This document shows positions 11,171-26,723 of a DNA stretch of 64,000 nt, piece by piece. Within the stretch, counting starts at the first letter, position 1. Each line of letters opens with the position of its first letter. This DNA is from an uncultured Bdellovibrionales bacterium (GTDB lineage: Bacteria > Pseudomonadota > Alphaproteobacteria > Micavibrionales > GCA-2720935): positions 78,534-142,533 of the forward strand of contig CAYGOD010000001.1 in the NCBI GenBank assembly GCA_964351525.1. Direction: 5' to 3'. A model generated the notes under the pieces. That model was not told the DNA's origin. It did not search any database and worked only from the letters and a program-made list of their open reading frames with translations. A program made the translations under genes and the position numbers.

Positions 11171-11180
11171 AACACCATAC

Positions 11181-11207: not shown

Positions 11208-11220
11208 TATATTAACGAGC

Positions 11221-11895
11221 ATGGAACAAAAGAATAAAAAGCAAAAAACAGCACAAGATCTATATGATGGCCTAGTTATCATTGCCGAGAATATTTGTGC
11301 TGAAATTAAATGGGCATACGTCAATTATGAGATTCTTGACGCATGCAATCAAAAAAAGATTACCGATAAGTTTACAAACACATATTCAGGTAATGTATGG
11401 GCTGTTCTACGTAGAAGCTTGCTAAATGAAACTCTTTTAGCTTTGTCTAAAGTTATTATAGATAAAAAGAATAAACCGTCTTCTTTCCACGCCTTGCATG
11501 AGCTTTTGAAGAAAGAAGAAGTAATAGAGCTGGTAAAGTTAAATTACACGCAAGCTGAAGATGCGTTTGATGATCGTCTTCAAGACTTGTTGGAAGGCTT
11601 ATCTTCTTTAGATGAATTTTTGAAAAATCATGATGCTTTCAAAAGCTTAGCCGCCCACCGCAATAACTATCTGGTACACAGGTCACAGAAAGTTTCTAAA
11701 TCTGTCAGAAACTTTCAATGGGGAGATGAAAAAACATTAATCAGTATTGTTGCTGATATAATGCACCCTATGGAACTTATGATTTTGAATGGTGGAAACA
11801 TTTCTAATTCAACTAGGTCTGTTTACAGAGCATATGCTAAAAACTTCTGGGATAGCATCGAACCAGATGATGCAAGGTTTAAATATACAGACTAA
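11221..11895 (+). CDS. Putative HEPN-domain protein, AbiU2-like (abortive-infection family)
   Basis: All-alpha-looking 224-aa protein with an R-x5-H motif (AAH-R147-NNYLV-H153-RS) in the C-terminal half, as in HEPN Rx4-6H nucleases. The general layout is remembered from AbiU2. No search was run. Confidence 0.4.
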   Translation: MEQKNKKQKTAQDLYDGLVIIAENICAEIKWAYVNYEILDACNQKKITDKFTNTYSGNVWAVLRRSLLNETLLALSKVIIDKKNKPSSFHALHELLKKEEVIELVKLNYTQAEDAFDDRLQDLLEGLSSLDEFLKNHDAFKSLAAHRNNYLVHRSQKVSKSVRNFQWGDEKTLISIVADIMHPMELMILNGGNISNSTRSVYRAYAKNFWDSIEPDDARFKYTD

Positions 11896-12329
11896 TTTCT
11901 CTTATCTTTCCTTAAGCCAAAAAATAAGGGCCCCGACCAATGAGATCCTGTGATTTCTTTAGCAATGGTTGTAAGGCTTGTATATTCACAACCGTTATAC
12001 TCCAGCCTTTTCTTATCATGGACATAGACGATATAGGTCTGTCCATTCCATTCCCGCTTTAGGATCGTTTTTGATGGGAGTTCGTGTTTCTTGATCGGCG
12101 CTTTAACTTCACCGCTGATAAGTCGATTGAGCTTTGTACGCGTACGCGCAGGCAATCCGCCACACGCTTTTTCCTGCACATGCCACGCGATATGGCGCAT
12201 GATCAAATCACGGCTAGATGGCTTTTCTTTATTGCCAAAACAATCAGCCCAAAGCGTGTGCAACGTTTTCTTGTCAGTTGTTTTTAGCATATTTAAGTCA
12301 GATAATATATGGCCCTGCATCTTCTTCAT
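11892..12329 (-). CDS. DUF2924 domain protein (recombinase-associated)
   Basis: Contains LWADCFG…SRDLIMRHIAWHVQEKACGGL…LKREWNGQTY…YTSLTTIAKEITGSHWSGPLFFGLR, which matches the remembered DUF2924 consensus well. Confidence 0.8.
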   Translation of the reverse strand: MKKMQGHILSDLNMLKTTDKKTLHTLWADCFGNKEKPSSRDLIMRHIAWHVQEKACGGLPARTRTKLNRLISGEVKAPIKKHELPSKTILKREWNGQTYIVYVHDKKRLEYNGCEYTSLTTIAKEITGSHWSGPLFFGLRKDKRN

Positions 12330-12339
12330 GAAGACAGTA

Positions 12340-12366
12340 ACGCTTCCTTAGAGCACGAAGTCCAGT
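12340..12366 (-). promoter_or_regulatory. 27-nt conserved leader box, copy B
   Basis: Sequence ACGCTT-CCTTAGAGCACG-AAGTCCAGT, lying 10 nt from the DUF2924 ATG. Confidence 0.5.
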
Positions 12367-12396
12367 CAATTAGTCACCTAAATTAAATGATTAAGA

Positions 12397-13200
12397 TTAG
12401 TTAATTTTCACTGCAAACGGTGCAAAGACCTGCTTTCCATCAATTTGAACCTGGGCGAATAGCTTTAAATACCCCGCTTGTTCCGGTTCAATATGAAAAC
12501 GCAAGGTTGGGCCACCACGTTCGGTGTCTTCAGTTGGTTCTGCGCCCATAGGGTGAATATGCGCGATAGTTTCATAATCTTCATAAAAGCCAACCATGTG
12601 CGCAAAAGCCCCCATGACAGGCTCAAGGACGTTTACGGCTTGCCCATCTTTGGAAATACTCACAGTGCTCATAACAGATTCTCCAGCCTTTAAGTCACCC
12701 TCCAATTCAAGCTTAAAGTCATACCCTTGTGATGAAGACTCGAAGCTCACTGTTTTATCAATTGGCTCTCTGCATTCTGCCGCGCCTTTTAAATCAACAG
12801 GTACATATTGTTGGTCTGATCCTTTAAGTTGAACATCCACCCAAATACGATAAGAGCAAGTAGTTTGTGGTGTAAAATTAAAAGCATATTGCCCAGTTGA
12901 TGTTTGAGTTGGATGTTCATGGTGATAATCATTCAATTCAGGGTCAATGATTAATAGGTGAACGGGTTTTGTATGAACAACCTTAAACTGCGACACATCC
13001 ACTGGCTGTGCTTGTTTATCTTGAACAAACAAAACAAGCGCATTTTCCTCTCCAGCTTTCAATTCAGCTGGCGTGATAGGCGTGATAATAAGTTGAGCCT
13101 CTGAATGGTTATGTCCGTCATGATCGTGTCCAGGTCCTGCCCATGTGGGCTGAATAAACGCGACTAGTATAAAAATTGTAGTGAAAATATGCTTTAACAT
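12397..13200 (-). CDS. Secreted His-rich putative metal-binding protein
   Basis: Signal peptide followed by AGPGHDHDGHNH. Internal HHEHP and AHIHPMG motifs. It is the last gene of the czc-type operon and overlaps the czcD-like gene by 7 nt. Confidence 0.5.
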   Translation of the reverse strand: MLKHIFTTIFILVAFIQPTWAGPGHDHDGHNHSEAQLIITPITPAELKAGEENALVLFVQDKQAQPVDVSQFKVVHTKPVHLLIIDPELNDYHHEHPTQTSTGQYAFNFTPQTTCSYRIWVDVQLKGSDQQYVPVDLKGAAECREPIDKTVSFESSSQGYDFKLELEGDLKAGESVMSTVSISKDGQAVNVLEPVMGAFAHMVGFYEDYETIAHIHPMGAEPTEDTERGGPTLRFHIEPEQAGYLKLFAQVQIDGKQVFAPFAVKIN

Positions 13201-14114
13201 TGTTGAGTTTCCTTCCTTTGGTTATTCATTTCAAAACATTTTTGATGTTCAAATTCCAATGTTGAGTGGTCGATGGAAAAACGATCTTTGAGTATTTGTT
13301 TCAGCTCTCGCTTGACCTCATCCATTCGGCCTTGATCGTCTATCACGACATGCGCTTCTAGAGCGTTGCGATTTTCATCCAGTTGCCAGATATGAACATG
13401 GTGCACATTCTGAACGCCTGCTTGTGTTTCCATGCTTGAAATTACATCTTCAATCGCTATGCCTTTCGGCGTTCCTTCCATAAGCAAGTGAATGACTTTC
13501 GGAATCTCGTGCAGTCCGTGATATAAAACATATCCGGCAATCAACAACGTCATTGCAGCATCCGTCCAAACCCAACCATAAAGTAAAATCAGTGTTCCGG
13601 CGATAATTACGCCAACCGAGGCAAGCGCATCCGTCAAGTTATGCAGAAATGCCGCCCGCATATTCATGCTATTTTTGGATTGACTATAGGTCAAAAAGGC
13701 CGTGAACAAATCAACTACTAAAGCTATTCCAGCAACAATAACAATCGTCCATCCGGCAATGGGTTCTGGTGTAATAAAACGCATAATTGCTTCATAGCAA
13801 AGATAGAGTCCGATAATGATCAAAGTGATCAGGTTAATAAAGGCCGCTATAGTTTCGGCGCGTTTATAACCAAATGTTTTGAATTGATCCGGCGGTTTGC
13901 GGCCAATACGAATTGCAATCAAAGCAATAAGCAGAGAAGCCGCATCGCTAAAATTATGTAGGGCATCGGCAATCAACGATAAACTGCCAGAAATTATGCC
14001 GCCGATCACTTGCGCCAGTGTGAGCAGTATGTTCGCACCCACCGCCCACCATAGGCATTTTTCGCCTATTTCAGATGGATCTCCATGGTGATGATGGTGC
14101 TGTCCGTGTCCCAT
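13194..14114 (-). CDS. czcD: Cation diffusion facilitator (CDF) metal efflux transporter
   Basis: N-terminal His tract (GHGQHHHHHG) and six TM helices. CDF signature around LIADALHNFSDA and HNLTDALASVG. A C-terminal cytoplasmic domain is present. Confidence 0.85.
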   Translation of the reverse strand: MGHGQHHHHHGDPSEIGEKCLWWAVGANILLTLAQVIGGIISGSLSLIADALHNFSDAASLLIALIAIRIGRKPPDQFKTFGYKRAETIAAFINLITLIIIGLYLCYEAIMRFITPEPIAGWTIVIVAGIALVVDLFTAFLTYSQSKNSMNMRAAFLHNLTDALASVGVIIAGTLILLYGWVWTDAAMTLLIAGYVLYHGLHEIPKVIHLLMEGTPKGIAIEDVISSMETQAGVQNVHHVHIWQLDENRNALEAHVVIDDQGRMDEVKRELKQILKDRFSIDHSTLEFEHQKCFEMNNQRKETQQC

Positions 14115-14117
14115 AAT

Positions 14118-14846
14118 TTACCCTATGTATTGTGATAGTATCCAGAAAGACATTGCTATCATCATTAAATTTTCAGTTAAGGATACAAAACCAAGTGGCA
14201 CGTTGCTATTCCCACCAACACATGCACATTTTAGTTCGCGTTTATCAACATAAACCGCTTTAAAAACAGAAATTGCGCCGACCGTTCCGATAAACAGGGC
14301 TGCGGGTGCGGAAATGATAGTGAGAAATCCCGAAATCATCGCCACGCCCGCGAGTGTTTCAATGAAGGGATAAACGTAGCCATACTTGACCCACCTTTGA
14401 GCCAGAAGATCGTAATTCAAAAATTGTAAGCTAAACGCTTCTAAGTCTCTTAACTTTTGGATACCCAATACGCACATGCTAATAGCAATAAAAAGCTCAA
14501 TCATTCTAATGATATTCAGCTCACCAATGGCCCATGCCGTTGAGAGGGCCATAAGGAAAGTCGTGGCGAAAATTGCGATAATGGGTTTGTAGGTCGTGCC
14601 TTCCTGTTTTTTTCCGAAAAATTCTTTCAGATCATCATATCCACCGATACGTTCTCCATCAATGAAAGTTTGCGGCGTTGTCTTTACATCATGCTTTTGT
14701 TTAAACACATCTGTTTCTTCGCGGCTGGTCAGATGATTATCTTCAACCTCGTATCCTTGAGCTTTTAAAAGATCGAGTGATTTTAAACCATACGGGCATA
14801 TATGCTTATCCATGACCATGCGGTAGAGTTCGGCTTTTTTTGTCAT
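14118..14846 (-). CDS. Glutaredoxin-like domain fused to MauE/DoxX-type membrane domain
   Basis: The N-terminus (CPYGLK…TPQTFIDGERIGGYDDL) is glutaredoxin-like. The C-terminus has four or more TM helices and a CAC motif. The ATG at 14846 has a good SD (AAGGAGAT); the track extension to 14924 would overlap czcA. Confidence 0.6.
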   Translation of the reverse strand: MTKKAELYRMVMDKHICPYGLKSLDLLKAQGYEVEDNHLTSREETDVFKQKHDVKTTPQTFIDGERIGGYDDLKEFFGKKQEGTTYKPIIAIFATTFLMALSTAWAIGELNIIRMIELFIAISMCVLGIQKLRDLEAFSLQFLNYDLLAQRWVKYGYVYPFIETLAGVAMISGFLTIISAPAALFIGTVGAISVFKAVYVDKRELKCACVGGNSNVPLGFVSLTENLMMIAMSFWILSQYIG

Positions 14847-14865
14847 TTTAAAAAATCTCCTTTTT

Positions 14866-17800
14866 TTATAAAACGCGCTGCTTTGTTTGCTGTTCCAAAT
14901 AACTTTGTGAAGCCTTCTCGCCAAATCTCCAGAACACCAATGGTGTAACGATGAGGTTTAGAAGCGTAGAACTGAATAGACCTGAGAAGATCACGATCGC
15001 AACAGGGCTAAGAATTTCTTTTCCTGTTTCACCAGCAGCCATTACGAGTGGTGTAAGGGCAAGCAGTGCCGTTAATGCAGTCATAAGCACTGGCACAAGC
15101 CGTTCTTGTGTTCCACGTTTGAGCATTTTAAGATCAAAGCTCTCACCCTCATGTTTCATGAGGTGGAGATAATGCGAGATCATCATAATGCCGTTGCGTG
15201 ATGCAATCCCTGTGAGCGTTATAAATCCAACCATTGTAGCGATTGAAAACACGCCGCCTGTCAGATAGATACCAATCACAGCACCAATGAAGGATAGCGG
15301 AATAGCAAGCATAACTTGTAGGCTAAGGTTGATTGAACGGAAATGTGTATAGAGAGCAAGGAACATTCCCAAAAGCGAGAAAATACTCAAGATTAAGATG
15401 TTACGTTGTGCTGTTGCTTGGCTTTCAAATTGCCCGCCATAGCTAATGTAATATCCCGATGGCAGTTCCAGCTTTTCATCGAGTATCCTTTGAATATCTT
15501 CAACGACACTTACCACATCACGACCTTGCGTATTGGCTTGTACAACCATACGGCGGCTAACACCTTCGCGGTTAATCAAGTTTGGCCCTTTGGCTTCCTC
15601 AATGTCTGCAAAAAGTTGTAAGGGAACAACATTACCGCGCAGCGTTTCAAACGGGATTTTGCCAATAGCTTCTTTATCCTCCCGAGCCTCATCATTAAGG
15701 CGCAAAACAACATCAAACAAACGATTGCCATCAATGATATTGGTGACGGTTTGTCCCTGCATCGCAAGCTCCGCATGTTGCGCGGCCTCACCAATCATAA
15801 CGCCATGTTGCTTGGCTTTATCACGGTCAAAATTCACATGAATTTGCGGTATTAGAAGCTGTTGCTCCATTTGCAAGTCAGCAATACCTTCAACGCCCTG
15901 AACCAAGGTCTGTACTTCGGCGGCCTTAGTACGCAATATATTGAGATCATCACCAAAGATTTTAATGGCAATTTGTGCGCGAACACCTGAGGTAATAAAA
16001 TCAATACGGTGAGATATAGGTTGACCAATATTGATAATCACGCCGGGAATTGAGCCGAGCTTTTCACGAATATCCGAAACGATATCTTCTTTATGTCGAT
16101 CCGATGATTTTAATGTTACTTCTAACTCTGTCGAGTTTACACCAAGCGCATGCTCATCTTCTTCGGCGCGACCCGTTCTTCGTCCAGTATCCGCAACTTC
16201 GGGAATTTCATGCATAAGGTTTTCTGCCAAAATACCGAGGCGATTACTTTCCTCCAACGATGTACCCGGCGGCGATGTTACATTGATTGTAAAACTACCC
16301 TCATTAAATTCAGGCAAGAATTCGCGCCCAAATGTTGGCACAAGCATTAACGCGCCTAAAAACAAAGCCGTTACAATTGCTAAAACAGACTTAGGGCGAG
16401 GCAATGCAAAATTTAAAACCCAAGCATGTCCAGATTTTAACTTTCGGACCATCCATCCATCTTTCTCGTCCTCCATACGCTTCATTTTGGGCAGAAGATA
16501 CGAGCATAAAGCGGGCGTTACAGTAAGTGATACAAGCATTGAGGCCACAATTGCGGTGATGTAAGCCACCCCAAGAGGGATAAACACTTTTCCTTCAAGA
16601 CCGCTCATCGCAAAAAGTGGTAAGAATACCATGAACACAATTATAGTTGAAAAGACAATCGAGTTCCTGATCTCCTTCGATGCTTTGAAAACAACACTTA
16701 AAGCGGGCTCTTTGTCTTTTTTATGCCTGTTTTCTCGCAATCGCCTGAATACATTTTCAACATCAACAATTGCATCATCGACGAGTTCACCAATTGCCAC
16801 AGCAAGACCGCCAAGCGTCATGGTGTTGATACTCATCCCGAACCATTTGAAGATGATCAAGGTCACAACAATAGATAAAGGAATAGCAACAAGCGTAATT
16901 GCGGTTGTCCTGAAATTTAGCAAAAACAAAAACAATATAATCGCTACCAAAATAGATCCATCACGCAGAGCTTCGATGATGTTGTGGATAGCGTTTTTAA
17001 TGAAGTCCGCCTGTTTAAATATCTCAGGATTGAGGACTACATCTTCAGGTAGTGAATTCTTGATAGATATTAGTTCTTTTTCAATTCGGTCAGTTAAGCC
17101 AATCGTATCTGTACCCGGTTGTTTTGAGACGGCAAGTAACACACCGGGCTTACCATTAACAGACGCGTCACCACGTTTAGCGATTGGTCCAGCTAATTTC
17201 ACCTCGGCTACGTCTGCAAGAGTTAGGGCAGGCATATCAGGTGAAACCTCTTTCGCAATGACGGTTTTTTTTAAATCATCAAGAGATCGAATAAGCCCTA
17301 AATTACGAACGGAATGTTCTTTATAGGCATCCAGTAAAAAACCACCTGTGGTGTTTACATTTGCATTTTCCAATGCCTCACGCACCTGATGTAAAGTAAT
17401 GCCGTGATTAAGCATTTTTTCGGGATCAACTAGCACGTGATATTGTTTTAAATCACCACCAATCGCCGTAATTTTTGATACACCACTAATGCCTAAGAGC
17501 CTTTGTTTTACATCCCAATCAGCAATCGTTCGTAAATCGAGAGGTGGTATATCAGGGTTTTCAGATGTGATGCCAATAAACATCACTTCTCCCATAATTG
17601 ATGATACTGGCCCCATGATGGACTGAACATCTTCGGGAAGGCTCCCTGCGACTTGGTTCAATTTTTCGGCAACAATTTGTCGAGCGAGATAAATATCCAT
17701 ATCCCAGTCAAATTCAACATAGACAATCGAAAACCCAATCGATGATGACGAACGAACCGTTGTTACACCACTCGCACCATTCATGGCAGCCTCTACAGGA

Positions 17801-18000
17801 AAAGTTACAAGCGTTTCGACTTCTTCGGGGGCAAGCCCATGCGCTTCACTAATAATTGTAACTGTGGGGCGGTTTAAATCAGGAAACACGTCCACTGGAA
17901 GTGTGCGCACAACTTGAAAGCCGTAGACCGTCATGAGTGCGGCGATAGTTATCACCAAAAGGCGATAATTCAGGGCAAAACGTATAATTGTATCAAACAT
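14866..18000 (-). CDS. czcA: Heavy-metal efflux RND pump, CzcA/CusA family
   Basis: A 1044-aa protein with 12-TM RND architecture. Typical HME-RND blocks are present (AIGELVDDAIVDVEN, GVSRRMVVQAN…). Confidence 0.9.
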   Translation of the reverse strand: MFDTIIRFALNYRLLVITIAALMTVYGFQVVRTLPVDVFPDLNRPTVTIISEAHGLAPEEVETLVTFPVEAAMNGASGVTTVRSSSSIGFSIVYVEFDWDMDIYLARQIVAEKLNQVAGSLPEDVQSIMGPVSSIMGEVMFIGITSENPDIPPLDLRTIADWDVKQRLLGISGVSKITAIGGDLKQYHVLVDPEKMLNHGITLHQVREALENANVNTTGGFLLDAYKEHSVRNLGLIRSLDDLKKTVIAKEVSPDMPALTLADVAEVKLAGPIAKRGDASVNGKPGVLLAVSKQPGTDTIGLTDRIEKELISIKNSLPEDVVLNPEIFKQADFIKNAIHNIIEALRDGSILVAIILFLFLLNFRTTAITLVAIPLSIVVTLIIFKWFGMSINTMTLGGLAVAIGELVDDAIVDVENVFRRLRENRHKKDKEPALSVVFKASKEIRNSIVFSTIIVFMVFLPLFAMSGLEGKVFIPLGVAYITAIVASMLVSLTVTPALCSYLLPKMKRMEDEKDGWMVRKLKSGHAWVLNFALPRPKSVLAIVTALFLGALMLVPTFGREFLPEFNEGSFTINVTSPPGTSLEESNRLGILAENLMHEIPEVADTGRRTGRAEEDEHALGVNSTELEVTLKSSDRHKEDIVSDIREKLGSIPGVIINIGQPISHRIDFITSGVRAQIAIKIFGDDLNILRTKAAEVQTLVQGVEGIADLQMEQQLLIPQIHVNFDRDKAKQHGVMIGEAAQHAELAMQGQTVTNIIDGNRLFDVVLRLNDEAREDKEAIGKIPFETLRGNVVPLQLFADIEEAKGPNLINREGVSRRMVVQANTQGRDVVSVVEDIQRILDEKLELPSGYYISYGGQFESQATAQRNILILSIFSLLGMFLALYTHFRSINLSLQVMLAIPLSFIGAVIGIYLTGGVFSIATMVGFITLTGIASRNGIMMISHYLHLMKHEGESFDLKMLKRGTQERLVPVLMTALTALLALTPLVMAAGETGKEILSPVAIVIFSGLFSSTLLNLIVTPLVFWRFGEKASQSYLEQQTKQRVL

Positions 18001-18014
18001 ATCTAATTCCTCCC

Positions 18015-19031
18015 TTAATGCTTATGATCGCTGTTATCGTCATGGTCATGTCCATCATCATGTGCGTGACCTTCCTGCTCATCATGTGTGTCTTCTTCAT
18101 CAATGTGTTCCTGAACTCCTCCAACAGACATATATTGAAGCTGATAATTTCCATTAGTCACAACACGTTCATTTGGGAATAGACCGCTTTTAATTTCAGT
18201 GTGATGACCTGTCTTTACCCCAACTGTCACCTCGCGCTTTTCAACCCCTTGGCCTTTCATAACATATACGAAGTAAGAGCCAAGCTCACCTAAAACAGAT
18301 CGCTTTGGAACCGCCATAACTGGCGCATCCGACCCTGTGAAAATTTCCATTGTTCCTTGTAATCCGGGTTGAATATCGCGCTTTGGGGTATCAATCATGG
18401 CAAAGATTGAAAATGTACGGCTTTCAGGGTCAATAACGCGGTTAATACGCTGTATTTTACCCTCAATATGACGATCAGGTGCAATATCAAGATGCAGTTT
18501 GGCTTTCTGCCCTACCTTCAAGATTTGAATGTCTGGTGTCTCATAAGCAACACCGCGCACTAGCATTTGGGAGGCATCACCGATTTCAAGAATATCGCCA
18601 CCAGCATCAATTATATCACCTACGCCTGCGTGCAGATTAAGAACAAATCCATCAATAGGTGAGGACAAAGCAACATTGCTACTTCCAACACTAAGGGGTT
18701 CCAGCGTGGCAAGACGTTGCCCTTTTTTCACTTCTTGTCCGACCTGAACAGCAATATCAAGAATCTTACCGCCAAACCTTGGAGAGATGGATGCTTGTTT
18801 CTCAGGCAATAATTCAGTGAAGGCTAACATATCAACAGCTTGTGCAATCGATAAAAACTCAACTTTTTCCGATTGAATATCCAGATTACTCATTTGTTGA
18901 TTGGTTAAATTAAAATGGGTTGCAGGGCCTGCGCCGCCAGCAAAGGCACTTTCCCCATGGTCGTGTCCAGGACCTGCATAAGCTGGGGCAATAATTGCAA
19001 TAAAAGCTATTAATATTAAAATTTTATTCAT
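18015..19031 (-). CDS. czcB: RND periplasmic adaptor (membrane fusion protein), His-rich termini
   Basis: Signal peptide followed by AGPGHDHGES. Contains lipoyl/beta-barrel MFP blocks and a C-terminal HDEQEGHAHDDGHDHDDNSDHKH tail. Confidence 0.85.
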   Translation of the reverse strand: MNKILILIAFIAIIAPAYAGPGHDHGESAFAGGAGPATHFNLTNQQMSNLDIQSEKVEFLSIAQAVDMLAFTELLPEKQASISPRFGGKILDIAVQVGQEVKKGQRLATLEPLSVGSSNVALSSPIDGFVLNLHAGVGDIIDAGGDILEIGDASQMLVRGVAYETPDIQILKVGQKAKLHLDIAPDRHIEGKIQRINRVIDPESRTFSIFAMIDTPKRDIQPGLQGTMEIFTGSDAPVMAVPKRSVLGELGSYFVYVMKGQGVEKREVTVGVKTGHHTEIKSGLFPNERVVTNGNYQLQYMSVGGVQEHIDEEDTHDEQEGHAHDDGHDHDDNSDHKH

Positions 19032-19036
19032 GATTT

Positions 19037-20260
19037 TTATTCCTTTGTGTTTGCAAGACTTTGACCAACTAAGCTTTCAAGCTCAATTCGCGCCTCGATA
19101 GAATTTAGGTATACTTGTAAGGCTTCGCTTTGCACATCCGTAATCCTTTCACGCATTTGAAAAAGATCGAGGATTGAAGCCTGTCCATTTTCAAATTTCT
19201 TATCAGTAATGGATTGCACATCATCCCAAGATGGAACGATTTTATTGCGATATGTAGAGGCCGAGATTTGCGTGGCCTTGGCTTGATCATAAGATGCTGC
19301 CAAAACATTCACAAAGTTTTGCTCATTCAGGGCATTAAGATTACTTTGTGCCAAACGGCGTTCTGCATTAGCTCTAGAAAGTTCGGCGTTATTTCGATCC
19401 CATATCGGAATGGCTATATTTACACCGAATAAAATTGCGGTGCTGTTTTCGTCAAGATCGCGCTCTATAACTGCACGAGGCGCAAACTCTGGAAAACCTG
19501 CATCTTGCCGCGCCACATTGTAGCGTCTTTCTGCAAGGGCTTTGCGGCTTTCCAAAAGACTTCGGATTGATCCCTCATTACCCGCGAGAGATGTTAAGGC
19601 CGTTAGATCAGGAATTTCAGGGCTTTTAGGCCGCTTAACATCAAAGCTCGTTTGATCCATGCCAGCCATCCGTAAAAGATTTGTCGCACCGTTTGTCTTT
19701 CTGGAGCGAATAACACGAAGTTGCTCTTCCAAACGGAGCGCTTCGGCTTTAAAGATTTTGGCATCTGCCGCATCAACACGTCCATCCTTTGCTGCACGCT
19801 CAATCAGCTTTTGCTTCTTACGTGCATAGCTAGCGTTTTCAGATAAAAGCTTTTCTTGTTCCTGCAAAGCCCAATAAGAAGAATAGCCACGCGTAATAGA
19901 GTGAATAAGTTCCAACATCTGAGCTTTCTGCTCAATACTAGCTGTTCTGCGTAGTGCGTTGGCGTATGAACCGCGCGACCCAAAATTGGAAAGCCTCATT
20001 GGCTGCTCTATCTCAATACCTACAGAACGCGAAGTACCGTCTTCAATCGCTGTAATATTGATTTCTGCTGTAGGGTTACTAAGCGTTTCAATTTCAAACG
20101 CCTCGGCATCAGCGTCTGCAAAATCATTTAAGATACGTGCAGTTTCTGGGCTGTTTTGAAGAGCTTGTTTAATAACTGTTTCTAGTGAAAGCGTTCCTGC
20201 TTTTGCTGCTTGAGTAGGCGCAAACAAAGCAACCAGCAAAATTATATATAAATATTTCAT
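19037..20260 (-). CDS. czcC: TolC-family outer membrane factor
   Basis: Signal peptide MKYLYIILLVALFAPTQAAKA and two coiled-coil/beta repeats typical of OMF proteins. The ATG at 20260 is preferred over the track start at 20332. Confidence 0.8.
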   Translation of the reverse strand: MKYLYIILLVALFAPTQAAKAGTLSLETVIKQALQNSPETARILNDFADADAEAFEIETLSNPTAEINITAIEDGTSRSVGIEIEQPMRLSNFGSRGSYANALRRTASIEQKAQMLELIHSITRGYSSYWALQEQEKLLSENASYARKKQKLIERAAKDGRVDAADAKIFKAEALRLEEQLRVIRSRKTNGATNLLRMAGMDQTSFDVKRPKSPEIPDLTALTSLAGNEGSIRSLLESRKALAERRYNVARQDAGFPEFAPRAVIERDLDENSTAILFGVNIAIPIWDRNNAELSRANAERRLAQSNLNALNEQNFVNVLAASYDQAKATQISASTYRNKIVPSWDDVQSITDKKFENGQASILDLFQMRERITDVQSEALQVYLNSIEARIELESLVGQSLANTKE

Positions 20261-20346
20261 TGTTATTTCCGTTTTTAAATGTTCATAGAAAAACGCAGCC
20301 CTAAACAGAGCTGACGCAAAATGCAGGCACAATTAGCCTGCGAACA

Positions 20347-20691
20347 TTAAATACGGGGTGGGCGACGCAATGCCGAGTGCTTGAAAGAATTATGATTATC
20401 AGAAGAAACTAAAATAAACGGCACGTTGACATTCATAGGTGTTTTTAAAGGGGCATTAAAAGTTGTAATTGTTTGAGAATGAACACAGCAACAATCAGTA
20501 CATGAACCTTGCTCTTGATTTTCATCCTGATTGTGGCTCTGCCCTGAGTGGCAAGGTTCGCTATCTGTTTTGTTGTGTTGCTCCATTTGATAATGATCAC
20601 ATGCATGGTCAGCAACATAAGCATGTGCTAAATCGGAAAAACCTCCGACAACGAACATAAATAAAAATATGCATAAGGTGAAAACTTTCAT
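20347..20691 (-). CDS. Small secreted Cys/His-rich protein (first gene of the czc-type operon)
   Basis: Signal peptide followed by a mature part rich in His, Cys, Asp and Gln (DHACDH, CHSGQSH, SCTDCCCVH). It occupies the position of small czcI-like periplasmic proteins, but no homology was established. Confidence 0.4.
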   Translation of the reverse strand: MKVFTLCIFLFMFVVGGFSDLAHAYVADHACDHYQMEQHNKTDSEPCHSGQSHNQDENQEQGSCTDCCCVHSQTITTFNAPLKTPMNVNVPFILVSSDNHNSFKHSALRRPPRI

Positions 20692-20775
20692 GATTCGAGG
20701 ATAGGCTCTTTTTCTGCTTAATCAAGAAAATAATTTAATAAGCTAACTACGAGGAGAAATTTTACAAAGATTAGC

Positions 20776-21180
20776 TTATTTATCTTTATTTTGATCGTCT
20801 ACCCCATATATCGGAGGCATAGGCTCAACTGGCCCATAAGGCGGTCTAATGATAATAGTAGGTCTCTGCATTGATTGCTCAACGGGAGAGGCTTTTTCAA
20901 GATATTGCATTACAGTTTTTAAAGCCTGCATATTGCCTTTCAAGCTCTCGCTGTAAAGCTTGTTAATAAGGGCTTCCTTTAGTTCTATCTGTTCTTTCCT
21001 TCCACCTTTGTTAATTGTGACAAGTTGTTTGGACACTTCGAGAAAAGTATCCCAAAATTTCTTTTCTTTTTGTGCATTAGTTGGGCGCCCATTTTGATTG
21101 CCAGATTGTCCTTTTTGAAACTGCGTTGATTTTGGCGGTCTGCCGTAGCCCACTTCATAGTCATCGTTATTATCCGTCAT
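20776..21180 (-). CDS. DUF5681-like protein
   Basis: The motif GYGRPPKSTQFQKGQSGNQNGRP matches the remembered DUF5681 N-terminal signature. The ATG at 21180 overlaps the upstream gene's end by 11 nt. Confidence 0.55.
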   Translation of the reverse strand: MTDNNDDYEVGYGRPPKSTQFQKGQSGNQNGRPTNAQKEKKFWDTFLEVSKQLVTINKGGRKEQIELKEALINKLYSESLKGNMQALKTVMQYLEKASPVEQSMQRPTIIIRPPYGPVEPMPPIYGVDDQNKDK

Positions 21181-22483
21181 GGTGCTCTCCCTTCTTTTGA
21201 TCAAAGGTTTGTCCATCTTCGTGAACTGCAACTTTTAAAGTTTCTTCCTTGTAGCGTTGGATGATCACATCGACATATTTAGGATCAAGCTCGATTAATC
21301 TCGCCTTACGCCCAGCTCGTTCAGCAGCGATTAATGAGCTGCCACTGCCGCCAAATACATCGAGAACAATATCACCACGTTTAGTGCAATCGAGGATAGC
21401 ATCTTCAATCATGATAACTGGTTTCACTGTAGGATGAAGCTCAAGATCTTTGTTGTTTTGGAATGTATTCACACCTGCATAGTCCCACACATTGGTGCGA
21501 TAACGCCCATGCTTGCCAAGTTCTACATTGTTGATATGAGGTTCTGTTCCATTTTTATAAACAAACACCAATTCATGTTTAGATCGGTATAGCGAACCCA
21601 TACCGCCATTGGTTTTGTTCCATATGCATAAATTCTTGAAATCATCATAAATCTCGCCGGCCTTGGTGATTTCTTTGATGTGACGCCAATCCATACAGAT
21701 ATAATGGAGTGAACCATTAATGGAATATTCCTTGAGATTCTGAAATGCGGTTTTCAAGAACCGTGTGAATTCTTCTTCTGACATCTCACCCGATGCCATT
21801 TTGAATTCATCATGTTTGACTTTGCCATTCCCACAAATGTGACCGTTTACAGGCACATTATAGGGTGGGTCTGTAAAAATGGCTTGGGCCCGTTCAGATT
21901 CCATCAAGCGTTCGTAAGATTCTGACTTGGTGGCATCACCACAATACAAAATATGTTCTCCCAGATACCACAGATCGCCTAATTGACTCACTGGGTTATT
22001 TGGAAGATTCAGAATTGATGGTTCTTCTGGCGATGCTTGATTACCCATCATAAAACCATCAATCTCAGCAATTTCAAAGCCAGTGAGCGTTAAATCAAGG
22101 TCGAGATCAAGGTCAGCAATGGTCTGAATTTCTGACTGTAGGATTTCAAAGTCCCAGCCAGCGTTTTCAGCGAGTTTATTATCAGCGATGATATAGGCGC
22201 GCTTCTGCGCTTCGGTTAAATGCCTCAGATAGATAATAGGTACTTGATGAATTCCAACAAGCTTAGCCGCTTCAAGGCGTCCATGACCAGCAATAATAGT
22301 ATGATCTGCATCAATCAGAATGGGGTTGGTAAACCCAAACTCGTGCATACTATCGGCGATTTGCTGAATTTGCTTTTTTGAATGCGTACGTGCATTGCTT
22401 TTAAAGGGTTTAAGGTCACTAGATTTTAAATAATGGATTTGTAAGTTTTGCCCAAGATGGGCAAAAGCATCTGCTTTTTGCAT
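21170..22483 (-). CDS. ParB-like N-terminal domain fused to N6/N4 DNA methyltransferase
   Basis: ParB-N blocks (NARTHSKKQIQQIADSMHEFGFTNPILID, IIAGHGRLEAA). Methyltransferase motif IV IFTDPPYNV and AdoMet motif VLDVFGGSGSSLIAAE. Confidence 0.85.
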   Translation of the reverse strand: MQKADAFAHLGQNLQIHYLKSSDLKPFKSNARTHSKKQIQQIADSMHEFGFTNPILIDADHTIIAGHGRLEAAKLVGIHQVPIIYLRHLTEAQKRAYIIADNKLAENAGWDFEILQSEIQTIADLDLDLDLTLTGFEIAEIDGFMMGNQASPEEPSILNLPNNPVSQLGDLWYLGEHILYCGDATKSESYERLMESERAQAIFTDPPYNVPVNGHICGNGKVKHDEFKMASGEMSEEEFTRFLKTAFQNLKEYSINGSLHYICMDWRHIKEITKAGEIYDDFKNLCIWNKTNGGMGSLYRSKHELVFVYKNGTEPHINNVELGKHGRYRTNVWDYAGVNTFQNNKDLELHPTVKPVIMIEDAILDCTKRGDIVLDVFGGSGSSLIAAERAGRKARLIELDPKYVDVIIQRYKEETLKVAVHEDGQTFDQKKGEHHDG

Positions 22484-22661
22484 GATAAGTCTCCTAGGAA
22501 AAATAGTTTTCCATTTTAATGTTTAAGGGGATGACCAAGAGGTGCCTTAGGCTCTCAAGGATGGTCCCCTTGGGACTCATCAATGTCTGAAAATAAAAAC
22601 GTCGTTAACGCTTTCAAAGTATATTTTATTCTAAATAAATCCTGCAGTCAATAAATTGATC

Positions 22662-23153
22662 TTATGATTTACAAAGCTCGTTCCATATTTTTGCAAAATC
22701 ATCAACTTCATCTTCAAAAAAAGTAAGTTCTGGCGATCCGGACACAAAGTATTTATAACCAACATACCCGCCATATGCATTTTTTGAATTGACCTGACCG
22801 CAGACTACATGCGTGCCACTAGCTTTACTATAAAACACATTTTTAAACTGTGCAGATGATGCATCTTTTAATCGTGATCGCACATAATCTTTTGTATTCC
22901 AAATGAAGATATCCTGTTTGTTTTTATCAAGCAGATAATCCTGTTTCTCTTGAGTAGAGGCTGCTTTATATTCATCTTCGTGCAGTTTTGCCGAAATGCT
23001 CCCAAAGACAAGAAGTACAATAAAAACCGAGAGCAACCCTAGAGCTATTTTTGAGATAATTGAAACAGGATCACGTTTCTCTGCACAATTGATGCACGTA
23101 ATAGTACTTTTACTAACGCCTTGATTACATTTCTTACATTTGGGTAATGCCAT
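22662..23153 (-). CDS. Zinc-ribbon / single-TM protein with extracytoplasmic domain, unknown function
   Basis: MALPKCKKCNQGVSKSTITCINC (CxxC…CxxC), then a TM helix, then a domain of about 100 aa. The ATG at 23153 has a GGGAG SD 8 nt upstream. The track's longer start runs into the structured element. Confidence 0.5.
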   Translation of the reverse strand: MALPKCKKCNQGVSKSTITCINCAEKRDPVSIISKIALGLLSVFIVLLVFGSISAKLHEDEYKAASTQEKQDYLLDKNKQDIFIWNTKDYVRSRLKDASSAQFKNVFYSKASGTHVVCGQVNSKNAYGGYVGYKYFVSGSPELTFFEDEVDDFAKIWNELCKS

Positions 23154-23170
23154 CTTACAACTCCCGTTAA

Positions 23171-23380
23171 TGTTAAAAGTCACCAGGCGCTTATCGCTCT
23201 GGTGACCGGGAGTTTGTAAGTTGCAATTACACAACCGCGACGATCTTTAGACCGGGGTCTTGGACATACATCGCCGCCTCCCGATCGTAAGAGATCGAAA
23301 GGCGACATCATGACGGCGATATCAGCCGGTAATTGCAGGGTTACAAAGCCCCGGCGAATACGCAAAACCGTATTCACAGC
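23171..23380 (-). ncRNA. Candidate structured RNA or cis-regulatory leader (four-way junction + intrinsic terminator), family not recognised
   Basis: A locally GC-rich island in AT-rich DNA. A 21-bp interrupted closing helix (23329-23354 with 23206-23231) encloses three hairpins, including a 12-bp helix at 23275-23304. There is a 5' hairpin at 23356-23375. The 3' hairpin GTCACCAG/CTGGTGAC is followed by UUUU on the minus strand. Several G-U pairs exist only in the minus-sense transcript. Confidence 0.45.
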
Positions 23381-23408
23381 CATACGTTATCTCTAATAGC
23401 ATTTTGTA

Positions 23409-24158
23409 TCAAGGAGAAAGATAGTTTTGGAAAAGATCGTAAAAGCCTATAACCGCTTGGGTTAAAGCATATGATGTTGTTATTAAAACTGCTAATCCGC
23501 CAACGAAACTGATAATGTTTTTTATTTTTGGAGCCGTTCGGTCCCAAAATGCAGTTTTAGGGCTTCCCAATATTAGAAGATGCCTTTTATTTTTTGATAA
23601 CCACCAATCGTGCGCGTAATGTTCTTCGTATACTTGAAACAAGCTGCTTTTGCTTAGCACTCTCTCGTTTATCGTGAGCGTAGAATTTTTTTCGTAAGAA
23701 AACCCATTACTTTTTCCTGACCATACACCACTAATATTGGAGATGTAATATAGAGCATCTAATAAGCTTGCCCCTTCGTATTTTGACTGCGCGATAATTT
23801 CTTCAACCGTAACGCCTTCTTTAAGTTTACTTGGATACATTTCTTTCAAAATATTAAAACACTCCTCCATAACCTCAATAAGGTTTTCCGATTTTTTAGA
23901 CTTTATAAGTGGAGGGGCATACGGTGAAAATCGATAAAAATTATGAGATTTATCATGTTCAATCCATCGTTCTGTATGATCTAGTTGATCTAGAGTATCC
24001 ATTTCGTCGGCATGTTGGGCGCGATATTTACTTTTATCAACTTGCGGCGGGATTCCTTGTAATGCGCTAAAAACATTTCGAAGGCACTGAACTTTCTCAG
24101 GACCTAAAACTTTAATCGCTTTTTTAATTTGCGTCTGATAGGTTTTTCTTACACTCAA
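23409..24158 (-). CDS. Hypothetical protein with C-terminal TM anchor
   Basis: A 249-aa ORF with a C-terminal hydrophobic helix (IISFVGGLAVLITTSYALTQAVIGF). No domain recognised. Confidence 0.5.
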   Translation of the reverse strand: MSVRKTYQTQIKKAIKVLGPEKVQCLRNVFSALQGIPPQVDKSKYRAQHADEMDTLDQLDHTERWIEHDKSHNFYRFSPYAPPLIKSKKSENLIEVMEECFNILKEMYPSKLKEGVTVEEIIAQSKYEGASLLDALYYISNISGVWSGKSNGFSYEKNSTLTINERVLSKSSLFQVYEEHYAHDWWLSKNKRHLLILGSPKTAFWDRTAPKIKNIISFVGGLAVLITTSYALTQAVIGFYDLFQNYLSP

Positions 24159-24170
24159 TATTTTGTCCTA

Positions 24171-24554
24171 TTAAACCGACCAACGAGCTTCTTGTTCTTC
24201 ATCTTCATCTTCATCTTCATCTTTAGCAGCGTCCTTTCGCAATCCTAACTGCTGAATCATTGTTTGTGTCCAGAATCGAACTTGTTTGATTGGATGGTCT
24301 TCTAGATCTTTAAGTGGGAGCTCATAGAGCGCGTAATATGTTGTTCTGGATCCGCTCCATCCATAAGTTCCGATATTTCTTGCAATACCATCTAGAACAT
24401 CTTTTCTGTCACCAAAACTATCGAGCAATCTGCGCATGATAGGATGAAGTGTTCTTACAGCATCTTCAGGGTTTTGAGATGTTAAAACTGGCACAACAAC
24501 AGCAACAAAAGCTGGAGCAACATCCGGGTGACCATTTTGGTCACAAATAAACAA
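24171..24554 (-). CDS. Hypothetical protein, possibly a 5'-truncated remnant
   Basis: A 127-aa ORF with only a TTG start and no visible SD. It has an acidic DEDEDEDEEQE tail and reads like the C-terminal piece of a larger helical-repeat protein. Confidence 0.3.
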   Translation of the reverse strand: MFICDQNGHPDVAPAFVAVVVPVLTSQNPEDAVRTLHPIMRRLLDSFGDRKDVLDGIARNIGTYGWSGSRTTYYALYELPLKDLEDHPIKQVRFWTQTMIQQLGLRKDAAKDEDEDEDEEQEARWSV

Positions 24555-24680
24555 TGGGGTTTGCTTTATTTACGGCTCTGCGTAAAGTAGTTTTATGGCC
24601 GATTTCACGGTTGCACAAAAAATGATTGATAGAATCAATTATGCCTTACAGAATATATTATACATTACGTAGATATTTTC

Positions 24681-25210
24681 TTTCCCTGATATTTCCCTGT
24701 TAATTGTTGGTCATATAACGGTGCCTTTGTCGTAACTTATTGTTTTGCAATAGGTTACAAGCTCTTAAATGTCCGTACTATTAAATATTACTAAAATTTT
24801 CCCTGTAAATTCCCTGTTTAACAGGGAATTTGCTATGATCGTTTAGTGCTATTGAAAAGCACTACACCGCCATACAGTCTTGCGTTTTTCCAAAAATAGA
24901 TATTTATCGTCCATGCCCGCGCTGTTTGCGGGCTTTCTAATATACGTCTTTAAAAGCCCTCATTGAGAATTGCTGAATAAAGCCAAATTATACCCATTCT
25001 CTCTTGGCCCTATATAGGCGAGGGCTCTTGCACAGTGTTTCAGGGTTTTAACACATTCAAATGACTTCTTAATTCCCTGCTAACAGGGAATTTTACAGGG
25101 AATTTTCTATTTTTCTAAAGCAAAAAAGCACCATAATGAAGCTGTTAGCAGTGTGAGCCTGGTTTCATGATGAATGACTCATTATATAATGCCAAATTAA
25201 CAGGGAATTT
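24681..25210. repeat. Array of nine A(A/T)TTCCCTGT(T/A)A motifs in both orientations (iteron/operator-like)
   Basis: Forward copies lie near 24682, 24693, 24799, 24810 and 25073. Reverse copies lie near 24821, 25083, 25095 and 25199. There is a perfect 25-bp palindrome AAATTCCCTGTT-T-AACAGGGAATTT at 24807-24831 and a second palindrome at 25071-25092. Tandem copies are spaced 11 bp apart. Confidence 0.8.
24915..24938 (+). terminator. Intrinsic-terminator-like hairpin inside the non-coding stretch
   Basis: GCCCGC-gctgttt-GCGGGC followed by TTTCT. No ORF lies upstream of it. Confidence 0.35.
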
Positions 25211-26723
25211 AAAGACGAATTAGTGTTTCAAAACTATCAATGATTGATTGATGTATATGATTTTTACTATGTGAGCCTTGCTTTGCAATATCAACCAAGC
25301 TTTCACCGTCGAAATGACGCGCTCTCCAAGAGATGCCCTTTACTACCCGTTTTAATAAATCTGCGTTCTCGTGACTAAATAGATCAAGTTTTTCTTGGTT
25401 GTCTGGTTTCTTTAATATGATAGCGTTTCTAGATTGTGTAAAAATATAATCGTATATGATGCATTCTGTTTCTGCGTATTTATCTTCATGACTCAAAACA
25501 TCTTTCCAAGAATAAGAAACTTTAATGTGAGAATGGCTTAGTGTTACACGTTGAATGTATCTCTGAATAACATCGGTATGTGTGTGGGGTCTCATATTGT
25601 CTGATGAAGAACTAAAAGCTAGTTTATCTATTGATACTTTGCTTAATTGTTCTTTGAGTTTTTCAGTTATAAAATCTTCAATTTGTTTTGCTGTGATGCG
25701 CGCGATAAGACCTTTGGGGTGATCTTTATATTGAAGTAGGTTCTGAGATATATAATAGCGATATTGCTTGGTCTTACCGTTCTTGGTTTTTTTAACAGTA
25801 TATGTTGGGCTGTACGGTGTACCATCAGGATCAAAGAGCAAGCCTTGTAACATATATTTAGATTGTGTCGTTTGCTTTCTAGCCGTAGCGTTCTCTGTTA
25901 ATAGTGTCTGTGCTTTGTTCCATGTTTCTTCATCAATGATTGCGTTGTGCAGACCCTCATAGATTTTATCTTTATGTGTTATCTTGCCGATATAAGCTTG
26001 GTTCTTCAAAATCTTATAAAGGCTTCCTCTGCTATAATATTTGTTACCATGCGTTCGTCCTTTCTGTGATGTCCGTATGGGGCTTTTTATGTTGTCTTGT
26101 TCGAGTGATGCCTTTAGCTCTTTGACTGATCTATATTCGAGATACCGTTTAAATATAAGTTCAGCTATTGGTGCCTCATCTTTATTAATCGCTAACTGCC
26201 TATTATCGATTGAATAACCAAGTGGTGCGGATCCACCCATCCACATGCCCTTAGCTTTACTTGCAGCAATTTTATCTCTGATACGCTCGCCTGTGACTTC
26301 ACGTTCAAATTGAGCAAAGGACAGTAAGACGTTAAGCGTTAATCGTCCCATCGATGTTGTTGTGTTAAAGCTTTGTGTGACGCTGACAAAGGTAACGCCG
26401 TATTCGTCAAAGACTTCTACCAGTTTTGAAAAGTCGGCCAATGACCGTGTTAGTCTATCAATCTTATATACAACTACGATGTTAGCCTTATAGGTCTTAA
26501 TGTCTTCTATAAGCCGATCTAAGGCTGGTCGCTCTAATGATCCCCCCGAATACCCACCGTCATCATAATGGACCTTGCTGGGTGACCAGCCTTCAGATTT
26601 TTGGCTTAAGATATAAGCCTCACATGCCTCACGTTGTGCGTCCAATGTATTGAAGGTCATGTCAAGGCGTTCATCTGTCGATTTACGGGTATATATGGCA
26701 CATATTTTTTTAGCATTCGTCAT
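25209..26723 (-). CDS. Large serine recombinase (paralogue of 9572-11170)
   Basis: Contains CAIYTRKST, LDAQRE, DGGYSG, VVVYKIDRLTRSL and SFAQFERE. The N-terminal ~200 aa are clearly alignable by eye with the first recombinase; the C-terminus differs. Confidence 0.9.
   Translation of the reverse strand: MTNAKKICAIYTRKSTDERLDMTFNTLDAQREACEAYILSQKSEGWSPSKVHYDDGGYSGGSLERPALDRLIEDIKTYKANIVVVYKIDRLTRSLADFSKLVEVFDEYGVTFVSVTQSFNTTTSMGRLTLNVLLSFAQFEREVTGERIRDKIAASKAKGMWMGGSAPLGYSIDNRQLAINKDEAPIAELIFKRYLEYRSVKELKASLEQDNIKSPIRTSQKGRTHGNKYYSRGSLYKILKNQAYIGKITHKDKIYEGLHNAIIDEETWNKAQTLLTENATARKQTTQSKYMLQGLLFDPDGTPYSPTYTVKKTKNGKTKQYRYYISQNLLQYKDHPKGLIARITAKQIEDFITEKLKEQLSKVSIDKLAFSSSSDNMRPHTHTDVIQRYIQRVTLSHSHIKVSYSWKDVLSHEDKYAETECIIYDYIFTQSRNAIILKKPDNQEKLDLFSHENADLLKRVVKGISWRARHFDGESLVDIAKQGSHSKNHIHQSIIDSFETLIRL

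Follow-up and report, generated by a model that had tools for sequence, protein, structure and literature searches.

A widespread and apparently pseudoknotted relative of sRNA-Xcc1 at the head of an accessory-gene slot in mobile elements

The 64,000-nt stretch of DNA analyzed here (contig CAYGOD010000001.1 of an uncultured Bdellovibrionales bacterium; hereafter the window, whose positions serve as coordinates throughout) encodes, between two genes at 23171-23380, a strand-specific and highly structured RNA of ~205 nt that runs from ~23377 to ~23172 on the minus strand, on which all RNA sequences below are read. We hold this with high confidence, and with equal confidence that the RNA belongs to a large, widespread family lying outside what Rfam captures. 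What is new is, judging from its conserved fold and its genomic setting, a large and probably pseudoknotted relative of the small RNA (sRNA) Xcc1 (RF02221) that appears to head the accessory-gene slot of mobile elements; the mechanism that we propose for it is read from its sequence signals.

Results

The Window Encodes a Highly Structured RNA

The initial annotation of this locus had described a GC-rich stretch between two AT-rich minus-strand genes, and composition bears this out: the GC fraction is 0.45-0.505 in the RNA stretch versus 0.33-0.39 in its flanks, which hold minus-strand open reading frames (ORFs) of 249 aa (23409-24158) and 163 aa (22662-23153). When folded, the minus strand reaches -98.7 kcal/mol (z = -6.5), which none of 200 shuffled sequences matches, while the plus strand reaches -85 kcal/mol (z = -5.45) and is 14 kcal/mol weaker. 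The minimum-free-energy (MFE) structure closely resembles the one originally drawn, with a 5' hairpin, a three-part closing helix, inner hairpins, and a strong hairpin followed by UUUU, GGGAG, and ATG. All the helices of that drawing are present where it had placed them, and each is preserved by compensatory changes in 86 homologs.

A blastn search of plasmid and phage collections with the element returned no relatives, and the window holds no second copy of the RNA. A search with the downstream protein led to RNA copies ~90% identical to that of the window, in marine metagenome contigs (L019-L023). Compared with one of them, L020, homology begins at a common TTGATA hexamer, and the ~175-nt core shows six differences: two compensatory double changes (accounting for four of the six), one A>G change giving a G-U pair, and one change in a loop. 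The change in the b:k part of the closing helix is doubly compensated (GU>AG with AC>CU). The two sequences diverge in the promoter spacer, in the spacer after the terminator, and in the 5' end of the downstream gene. Since changes in the core are mostly compensatory while the flanks and the 5' end of the downstream gene diverge, selection appears to act on the RNA and not on the protein.

Covariation across a Large Family

A pattern built from motifs common to the window RNA and the Rfam Xcc1 consensus uncovered diverged copies in two viral contigs (L024 and L028), and a three-anchor pattern matched 107 stretches in species-representative genomes. The anchors, CGGGRGGCGG, UGUCCAAG, and CUCCCGG, are fixed by the search pattern, so that their invariance is no evidence and the true family may be more diverse. 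Two of the 107 stretches (L033 and L107) are chance matches, while L037 is a divergent copy outside the alignment that our covariance model, R1, finds at 66 bits. The alignment, A3, comprises 86 core sequences from homologs in other species. The hosts are mostly Micavibrio, Rickettsiales, Rhodospirillales, Hyphomicrobiales, and unclassified Alphaproteobacteria, and further copies occur in Bdellovibrio-like bacteria or predators, Chthoniobacteraceae (Verrucomicrobiota), Planctomycetota, and Melainabacteria; the closest relative carries the label Bacteriovoracaceae.

On A3, the proposed 49-pair structure is paired in 94.7% of 4150 cells, versus 79.2% in column shuffles and 42-50% when partners are slid. 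Homolog collection and covariation analysis thus corroborate the original proposal, with 31 pairs changed on both sides over 693 cells and a covariation score (0.496 versus 0.211) that none of 500 shuffles reached. As for the individual helices, b:k has invariant U-A and A-U ends, while its three central base pairs (bp) take all four Watson-Crick types (UA, AU, CG, and GC) and are paired in 83-86 of the 86 sequences. Helix d:i (7-9 bp) is hypervariable and near-random between species, yet remains complementary, all seven of its seven scored pairs having changed on both sides; it reads UGCAAUUAC/GUAAUUGCA in the window, AAUCGUAG/CUACGAUU in L024, and CACAAGG/CCUUGUG in L028. Hairpin 23314-28 is paired in 97.2% of cells (three of four pairs changed on both sides), helix 23304-23323 in 96.0% (six of six), P3 in 95.6% (four of four), and P2 in 99.6% (four covarying pairs). 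In H2, whose 3' strand is partly fixed by the search pattern, 92.5% of cells are paired, and one pair is split 35/22/14 among C-G, U-A, and U-G. Within the internal loop of P2, AAA and the preceding A are near-invariant and lie outside the search pattern, whereas UGUCCAAG lies inside it.

Helix 23304-23323 crosses hairpin 23314-28, and P3 (23220-23235) crosses helix d:i. Because of these two extra covarying helices, the family fold is best drawn as a closing helix (a:l and b:k) around a five-way junction (H1, H2, P2, and P3), with two likely pseudoknots in the core. The four-way junction originally proposed therefore stands as regards its helices, but not as a plain four-way topology. In the window, the nested form is the energy minimum at -94.4 kcal/mol, versus -82.3 kcal/mol with P3 forced, a comparison in which the pseudoknot goes unscored. 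Helix e:h of the MFE structure (23324-28 with 23232-36) was discarded, being kept by position in only 35-82 of the 86 sequences; P3 fits better. Finally, core position 73 tracks both its H2 partner and position 153, the first base after the closing helix, with A-U-U in 22 sequences and never A together with C, which is a hint of alternative pairing, although common ancestry could explain the pattern.

The alignment also speaks to the strand. In the helices, G-U cells outnumber A-C cells by 526 to 48 (11:1), and model R1, which gives the window 146 bits, assigns 60-136 bits to non-seed homologs but no more than 26 bits to their opposite strands. The G-U excess and these strand-specific scores together argue for an RNA on the minus strand rather than a DNA cruciform, as had been claimed from the G-U pairs of the window.

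The same stretch contains a 67-aa ORF, picked by a gene caller, that the initial annotation had judged implausible. It has no Pfam or PHROG match; in the 90%-identical L020, ATT replaces its ATG and an indel of 2 nt puts it out of frame; and the family's core lengths spread evenly modulo 3, with no conserved frame. We rejected a real 67-aa protein on these grounds, and a repeat or miniature transposon because the window has no second copy.

Relation to sRNA-Xcc1

Neither the window nor any of 41 related loci yields an Rfam family at its gathering score, and 18 homologous loci besides L020, L024, and L028 likewise show nothing at that threshold, which agrees with the earlier failure to recognize a known family. 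With E values of up to 10 allowed on the RNA region, the only match is a sub-threshold one to Xcc1, a likeness that had been missed; no ribozyme family and no C4 appear. The Xcc1 model scores 32.3 bits on the window, 34.2 on L028, 30.7 on L024, and 30.5 on L020, against a gathering score of 53, whereas a genuine Xcc1 copy on a Kingella plasmid scores 56.4 bits. Model R1, for its part, does not detect canonical Xcc1. Because of these sub-threshold scores and of what R1 misses, we do not count the window RNA as an RF02221 member, and treat it as an enlarged, fused variant within an Xcc1 superfamily.

The 3' half of the window RNA (23196-23286) aligns end to end with the 87-nt Xcc1 model and can be drawn with the same three-helix layout, in which P1 is joined by P3 and by P2, the latter interrupted by a large internal loop and topped by a small apical hairpin. 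The two share the motifs CGGGnGGCGG and, after the junction, CnCCCGGnCACC, and both lie 30-60 nt ahead of an accessory gene that reads in the same direction and belongs to a phage, plasmid, integron, or island. They differ in that the window family fuses a 5' module into one ~150-nt core, in which the added helix H2 takes up the 5' strand of P1 and the 3' strand of P1 pairs with the 5' module. Moreover, the internal loop is AUGUCCAAG/UAAAG in the window family and AAUACAAUA/GAA in Xcc1, and the window family has a separate terminator hairpin, a role left in Xcc1 to the P1 stem, after which the U-run comes. The ~88-nt Xcc1 transcript has its 5' end at the start of P1, while the conserved promoter of the window family lies ~100 nt further upstream, predicting a longer primary transcript. 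P1 can be drawn in all 86 sequences, but both its strands are fixed by the search pattern, and it competes with H2 plus the closing helix, which are 19 kcal/mol more favorable in the window.

Consensus-derived Xcc1 queries found no copy in Escherichia coli genomes and viral contigs, and a search of plasmids then gave the Kingella copy. Canonical Xcc1 lies 30-45 nt 5' of a KilA-N gene on this plasmid, of a small ORF and a DNA-binding gene in Vibrio phage VPBES (where the RNA is annotated as sRNA-Xcc1), and of antirepressor genes in Shigella phage POCJ13. At these loci (L137 1291-1545, L138 1380-1577, and L139 150-395), a segment 40-110 nt upstream is apparently complementary to the RNA's own P3 loop and junction strand, with a hairpin and the U-run motif GCUUUUUUNUGCC after it. 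This upstream partner is clear in VPBES and recognizably like those of L028 and L108; in Kingella and POCJ13 it was read by eye, with a duplex energy no better than that of shuffles. The Rfam Xcc1 model may cover no more than the 3' half of an RNA made of two modules. For the window family we are highly confident that the 3' half is distantly related to Xcc1 and that the 5' half is an extra module pairing with the loop and junction strands of this Xcc1-like half.

Two further observations concern these canonical loci. At the Kingella locus, a strong promoter, TTGACA-N17-TGATAAT, lies ~130 nt 5' of the point at which the Xcc1 annotation begins. In POCJ13, the interval between two antirepressor genes (L139 740-916) gives a weak R1 match (9.9 bits, E 0.075) with matching b:k (CUCGAAA/UUUCGAG) and d:i (CCCAAAAG/CUUUUGGG) segments, and may be a second, divergent copy in tandem with canonical Xcc1.

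Xcc1 was first found in a Xanthomonas campestris integron cassette and, going by the title of an earlier study, is reportedly a trans-acting sRNA under HrpG/HrpX control. It is present in Xanthomonas as a ~88-nt RNA, as established by Northern blot and end mapping (PMC2996969), and lies 5' of symE in the most widespread Xanthomonas integron cassette (bioRxiv 10.1101/2025.06.18.660453). It also occurs as five tandem copies in a Xylella island and adjoins C4 and isrK in another strain (PMC12189769), and it precedes an ORF6N gene in APSE phages (bioRxiv 10.1101/2020.03.17.996009).

Signals around the RNA

Upstream of the core, 56 of the 86 homologs have a TTGNNN-N16-18-TANNNT motif, versus 6.1 expected, and in those 56 the -35 start is always 45-57 nt before the core. 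From this spacing we infer a conserved sigma70-type promoter, which in the window would start transcription at ~23374-23377, where the base of the 5' hairpin lies. Across the 86 homologs, the 36 nt preceding the core fold to -9.1 kcal/mol, versus -5.3 kcal/mol for shuffles.

Downstream of the core, a single strong hairpin (median -18.1 kcal/mol) follows in 83 of the 86 homologs, and in 72 of these 83 it begins with the GG that ends the closing helix, at the first of the two G. The next 8 nt contain at least four U in 60 of the 83 and at least five in 50. The opening bases of the stem show a conserved sequence, Y-C-R-C-C-A-G, with R-CCA, which is outside the search pattern, in 77 of 86. This sequence (23200-23205 in the window) is not needed by the terminator stem and follows a potential 9-bp stem, like a tRNA acceptor end. 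A Shine-Dalgarno (SD) sequence and start codon come 45-60 nt after the core in nearly all family loci, and the hairpin-to-SD interval in the window is too short for a promoter.

Downstream Genes and the Host Element

The features of the locus and of its host element are collected in Table 1. The 163-aa protein has no Pfam match and matches PHROG families of unknown function. The link between the RNA and this zinc-ribbon gene, which the initial annotation had noted just downstream, proved incidental: relatives of the protein's C-terminal domain are found in 16 viral loci without the RNA, and homologous RNAs precede unrelated genes, so a tie to the zinc-ribbon protein family was rejected. The downstream gene encodes a zinc-ribbon membrane protein in the window and a few other loci, and elsewhere a lipoprotein or small secreted protein, a prepilin-type or pilin-like protein, a tail-fiber-like protein, or a restriction-type nuclease of the GmrSD (GmrSD_N), Mrr (Mrr_cat), HNH, or GIY-YIG kind. 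Since relatives of the protein occur without the RNA and the downstream gene is not conserved, the RNA marks a cargo position and not a particular gene. In Hyphomicrobiales copies, the downstream gene often encodes a conserved secreted protein of ~105 aa.

At 15 loci the order is RNA, variable gene, and ParB-domain DNA methylase, in most cases followed by DUF5681, DUF2924, and a large serine recombinase. The window has the same backbone, next to tRNA-Ser, and its host looks like an integrative element that abuts tRNA-Ser (8296-8383) and spans 8296-26723. Between DUF5681 and DUF2924 sits a heavy-metal efflux block comprising CzcCBA-like genes, a CDF transporter, and a MauE/DoxX protein; it appears to be a later insertion, because related loci lack it. 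In the 179-nt gap between the 163-aa and ParB-methylase genes, there is a promoter-like site, TTGACT-17-TAAAAT (10/12 matches; 22623-22651, minus strand), so that the methylase operon may be expressed independently of any read-through coming from the RNA.

Table 1. Features of the RNA locus and of its host element (window coordinates; element genes listed in minus-strand order, far end first)
Feature	Position	Strand	Remarks
-35-like hexamer TTGATA	23407-23412	-	Overlaps TGA stop of upstream 249-aa ORF; common to L020 despite diverged flanks
-10-like hexamer TAACGT	23384-23389	-	Sequence motif, 17 nt after -35
67-aa ORF	23180-23383	-	Not a gene
5'-terminal hairpin, 7-9 bp	23356-23375	-	Sequence varies across family; A-U to G-C change in L020
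Conserved core, 152 nt (closing helix, multi-way junction, Xcc1-like 3' half)	23206-23357	-	Model R1, 146 bits (window is a seed member)
Closing-helix 5' strands a and b	23341-23354	-	Pair with 23206-23219
Closing helix, part a:l	23350-54 with 23206-10	-	5' strand CCGGGG, 3' strand CUCCCGG
Closing helix, part b:k	23341-47 with 23213-19	-	UUUGUAA with UUACAAA
Strand d (UGCAAUUAC)	23329-23337	-	Pairs with strand i, 23222-23230 (GUAAUUGCA)
Two overlapping helices, 23314-23328 and 23304-23323	23304-23328	-	Joint topology of an H-type pseudoknot
Helix H2, 12 bp	23275-86 with 23293-304	-	Pyrimidine strand CGCCUUUCGAUC with GAUCGGGAGGCG; G-U-rich
Helix P2	23237-23277	-	Conserved internal loop (AUGUCCAAG 23259-23267, UAAAG 23245-23249), small apical hairpin
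Local hairpin P3	23220-23235	-	Loop and 3' strand carry strand i; corresponds to P3 of Rfam Xcc1 model
Closing-helix 3' strands k and l	23206-23219	-	Final GG also belongs to next hairpin
Terminator-like hairpin GGUCACCAG...CUGGUGAC(U) and UUUU (23175-23178)	23175-23207	-	-18.9 kcal/mol; holds R-CCA 23200-23203
SD GGGAG (23161-23165) and ATG (23151-23153) of downstream gene	23151-23165	-	Sequence
Serine recombinase	25209-26723	-	Far end of element
Two unknown ORFs		-	Followed by the RNA
163-aa gene	22662-23153	-	CxxC...CxxC zinc ribbon, single transmembrane segment, C-terminal domain also present in phage proteins
ParB-domain DNA methylase	21170-22483	-	
DUF5681		-	
Heavy-metal efflux block	12397-20691	-	
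DUF2924	11892-12329	-	
AbiU2-type HEPN gene	11221-11895	+	Opposite strand
Second serine recombinase	9572-11182	-	
319-aa ORF		-	tRNA end of element

Some genomes carry several copies, for example two on JAFLCW010000001.1 and others on three contigs of the JAMIFL01 assembly. Genomes with two or three copies, sometimes on the same contig, include those with L044 and L062 (one Hyphomicrobium contig), L039 and L092, and L037 and L102, besides other assemblies; such co-resident copies differ in their variable helices and in their downstream genes. The mobilizable plasmid pcai42B of Frigidibacter mobilis carries an unannotated family member (L136 3394-3566, 86.7 bits with R1), directly 5' of a gene for a prepilin-type N-terminal domain protein.

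Discussion

Building on the fold, the strand, the promoter and terminator signals, and the fixed spacing to a variable gene, we favor, at roughly even odds, the reading that the RNA is a promoter-proximal attenuating leader or sRNA of mobile-element cargo genes. Transcription would start at the conserved sigma70-type promoter, and the RNA would fold as it is made, beginning with the 5' hairpin and continuing with the pseudoknotted hairpin pair, H2, P2, and P3, with the closing helix forming as soon as its 3' strands, k and l, have been transcribed. At the strong hairpin and its U-run, most polymerases would then halt, leaving a stable ~205-nt RNA with hairpins at both ends, while the fraction that reads through would serve as cargo-gene mRNA, with the SD and start codon 20-30 nt further on. 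Since the closing helix ends in two G with which the terminator stem begins, a fully closed core would weaken termination and an open core would strengthen it, and the state of the core would thus set cargo expression. The trigger might be a protein, a small ligand, or a second copy of the RNA that pairs with the 5' module.

Several points weigh against this reading. The RNA ends, termination, and read-through are predicted for every member of the family. The terminator of the initial annotation stands as regards its hairpin and UUUU, with SD and ATG following, but a strict terminator scan called no site at the window RNA, because its U-run consists of only four U. The overlap between closing helix and terminator is only 2 nt, and an antiterminator complementary to the terminator's 5' strand was looked for by eye only, with none convincing. 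The window RNA favors the closed nested fold over the Xcc1-like alternative by 19 kcal/mol, a gap that makes a spontaneous switch between the two unlikely. Furthermore, two pseudoknots and conserved internal loops exceed the needs of a simple attenuator, which hints at a specific partner. An extended pairing of CUCCCGG with the SD region was considered and rejected as not general, since CGGGAG occurs in 16 of the 86 loci and CCGGGAG in six.

A free-standing antisense RNA of the immunity type, like c4 of P1/P7 or CI of P4, is the main alternative, possible but rather doubtful. The downstream gene would be affected only indirectly: the mature RNA, possibly a processed Xcc1-like 3' half, would find its targets via the P3 loop and strand k, the 5' module would be a target copy in cis, and the hypervariable complementary segments would set specificity between co-resident elements. 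This would account for the two recognition segments (i and k), each with an upstream partner (d and b) that is variable but always compensated, and for the several copies per genome. Indeed, c4 and CI are likewise encoded in mobile elements, in the leader of the operon they govern, with short recognition segments and complementary upstream copies in the same transcript, as b:k and d:i are here; in them, paired substitutions reportedly change specificity (Citron & Schuster 1990; P4 literature). The R-CCA conserved directly after the potential P1 stem is consistent with such processing, the RNase P signal on c4 reportedly resembling this arrangement of a stem and then CCA, but the CCA lies inside the terminator stem and would hence not be free for RNase P. 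Canonical Xcc1 precedes antirepressor and KilA-N genes as c4 precedes icd-ant in the P1 operon, is a ~88-nt species in Xanthomonas (PMC2996969), and adjoins C4 and isrK in Xylella (PMC12189769). As for targets, 21 nt of the window RNA (23214-23234) show 81% complementarity to the start region at 23140-23160 (UUGUAAG-AUG-GCAUUAC; predicted duplex -27.5 kcal/mol), a region that resembles another copy of strands b and d; the feature is confined to the window and not general in the family. Across 83 loci, however, the i/k region pairs no better with its own start region than with others (normalized rank 0.464, p = 0.27), and c4-like target copies at the downstream start were accordingly rejected for want of cognate enrichment; target copies overlapping the ribosome-binding site downstream, as in c4 and CI, are not detectable across 83-86 family loci. 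The 64-kb window holds no other strong partner beyond the cis 5' module and the gene's start region, and the fixed distance to the downstream start codon favors a role in cis. Finally, the window RNA has no sequence or model match to C4 and, unlike c4 and CI, is much larger and pseudoknotted.

Other known systems share part of this layout. In a riboswitch, the core would be an aptamer for a small molecule or ion whose binding stabilizes the closing helix and so modulates the adjacent terminator. The likeness to riboswitch attenuators lies in a promoter-proximal domain with covarying helices and conserved junction nucleotides, in which the 3' end of the closing helix overlaps a terminator that is followed by SD and gene, and a multi-way junction, pseudoknots, and near-invariant unpaired nucleotides beside covarying helices would all suit an aptamer. 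A metabolite riboswitch is nonetheless unlikely, because downstream genes vary freely with no common pathway, transporter, or enzyme theme; several copies with different cargo coexist in one genome, and the 2-nt terminator overlap comes without an antiterminator visible by eye. Of the three functions originally offered, riboswitch, attenuator, or sRNA, the metabolite riboswitch thus loses ground, while attenuator and sRNA are both candidates. More improbable still is a self-cleaving or RNase-processed insulator leader (a ribozyme or a substrate of RNase P or E) that would standardize the 5' ends of cargo mRNAs. Many small ribozymes are associated with mobile elements, as this RNA is, and the complex conserved fold with invariant internal-loop nucleotides and the potential P1 stem before R-CCA could be seen in that light, but no ribozyme family in Rfam matches even at E values of up to 10, no cleavage-site signature was identified, and the terminator between RNA and gene would have no role. 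Type III toxin-antitoxin systems (ToxIN-like) have the same order of promoter, noncoding RNA, terminator, and potentially harmful gene, with read-through setting the ratio of the two products, but 23171-23380 contains no tandem or direct repeat family, and the downstream proteins are neither ToxN/AbiQ-type endoribonucleases nor a single family. The put RNA of phage HK022 is a structured, cis-acting antiterminator RNA right after a mobile-element promoter, with terminators to be passed following it, as in the window; the window RNA is dissimilar in sequence and fold. Least probable of all, and already largely refuted, is that the stretch is not an RNA gene but a DNA element (a recombination site, cruciform, single-strand origin, or miniature transposon) or a real 67-aa gene. 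It is true that the plus strand also folds well, that the locus lies within an integrative element with two serine recombinases, and that a gene caller picked the ORF; against this stand the 11:1 preponderance of G-U over A-C, the strand-specific model scores, the order of promoter, terminator, and SD on one strand, the single copy in the window, and an ORF whose start and frame are unconserved and which matches no protein family.

A further reading, which we hold less probable than not, is that the RNA is a portable control module for a cargo slot, and that Xcc1 is the 3' half of a two-module system with a specificity code. If so, it would be a new class of large structured RNA, of riboswitch- or ribozyme-grade complexity, that controls the defense and surface cargo of integrative elements and phages, its 5' module pairing with two hypervariable recognition segments so that each element's own cargo or antirepressor is regulated without cross-talk between co-resident relatives.

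Whatever its mechanism, 107 places found with one deliberately narrow pattern indicate a family of a size and complexity that would make it a worthwhile entry among the cataloged structured RNAs of bacteria. Its function is accessible to compensatory mutants through helices that are hypervariable yet always compensated. The RNA offers a search handle for new cargo genes in mobile elements, such as restriction-type nucleases and surface proteins, and could give a clue to how such genes are kept in check. Xcc1, treated so far as a virulence-linked trans-acting sRNA of Xanthomonas, now appears to be part of a broad family of leader RNAs preceding antirepressor, toxin, and accessory genes and carrying a built-in pairing partner.

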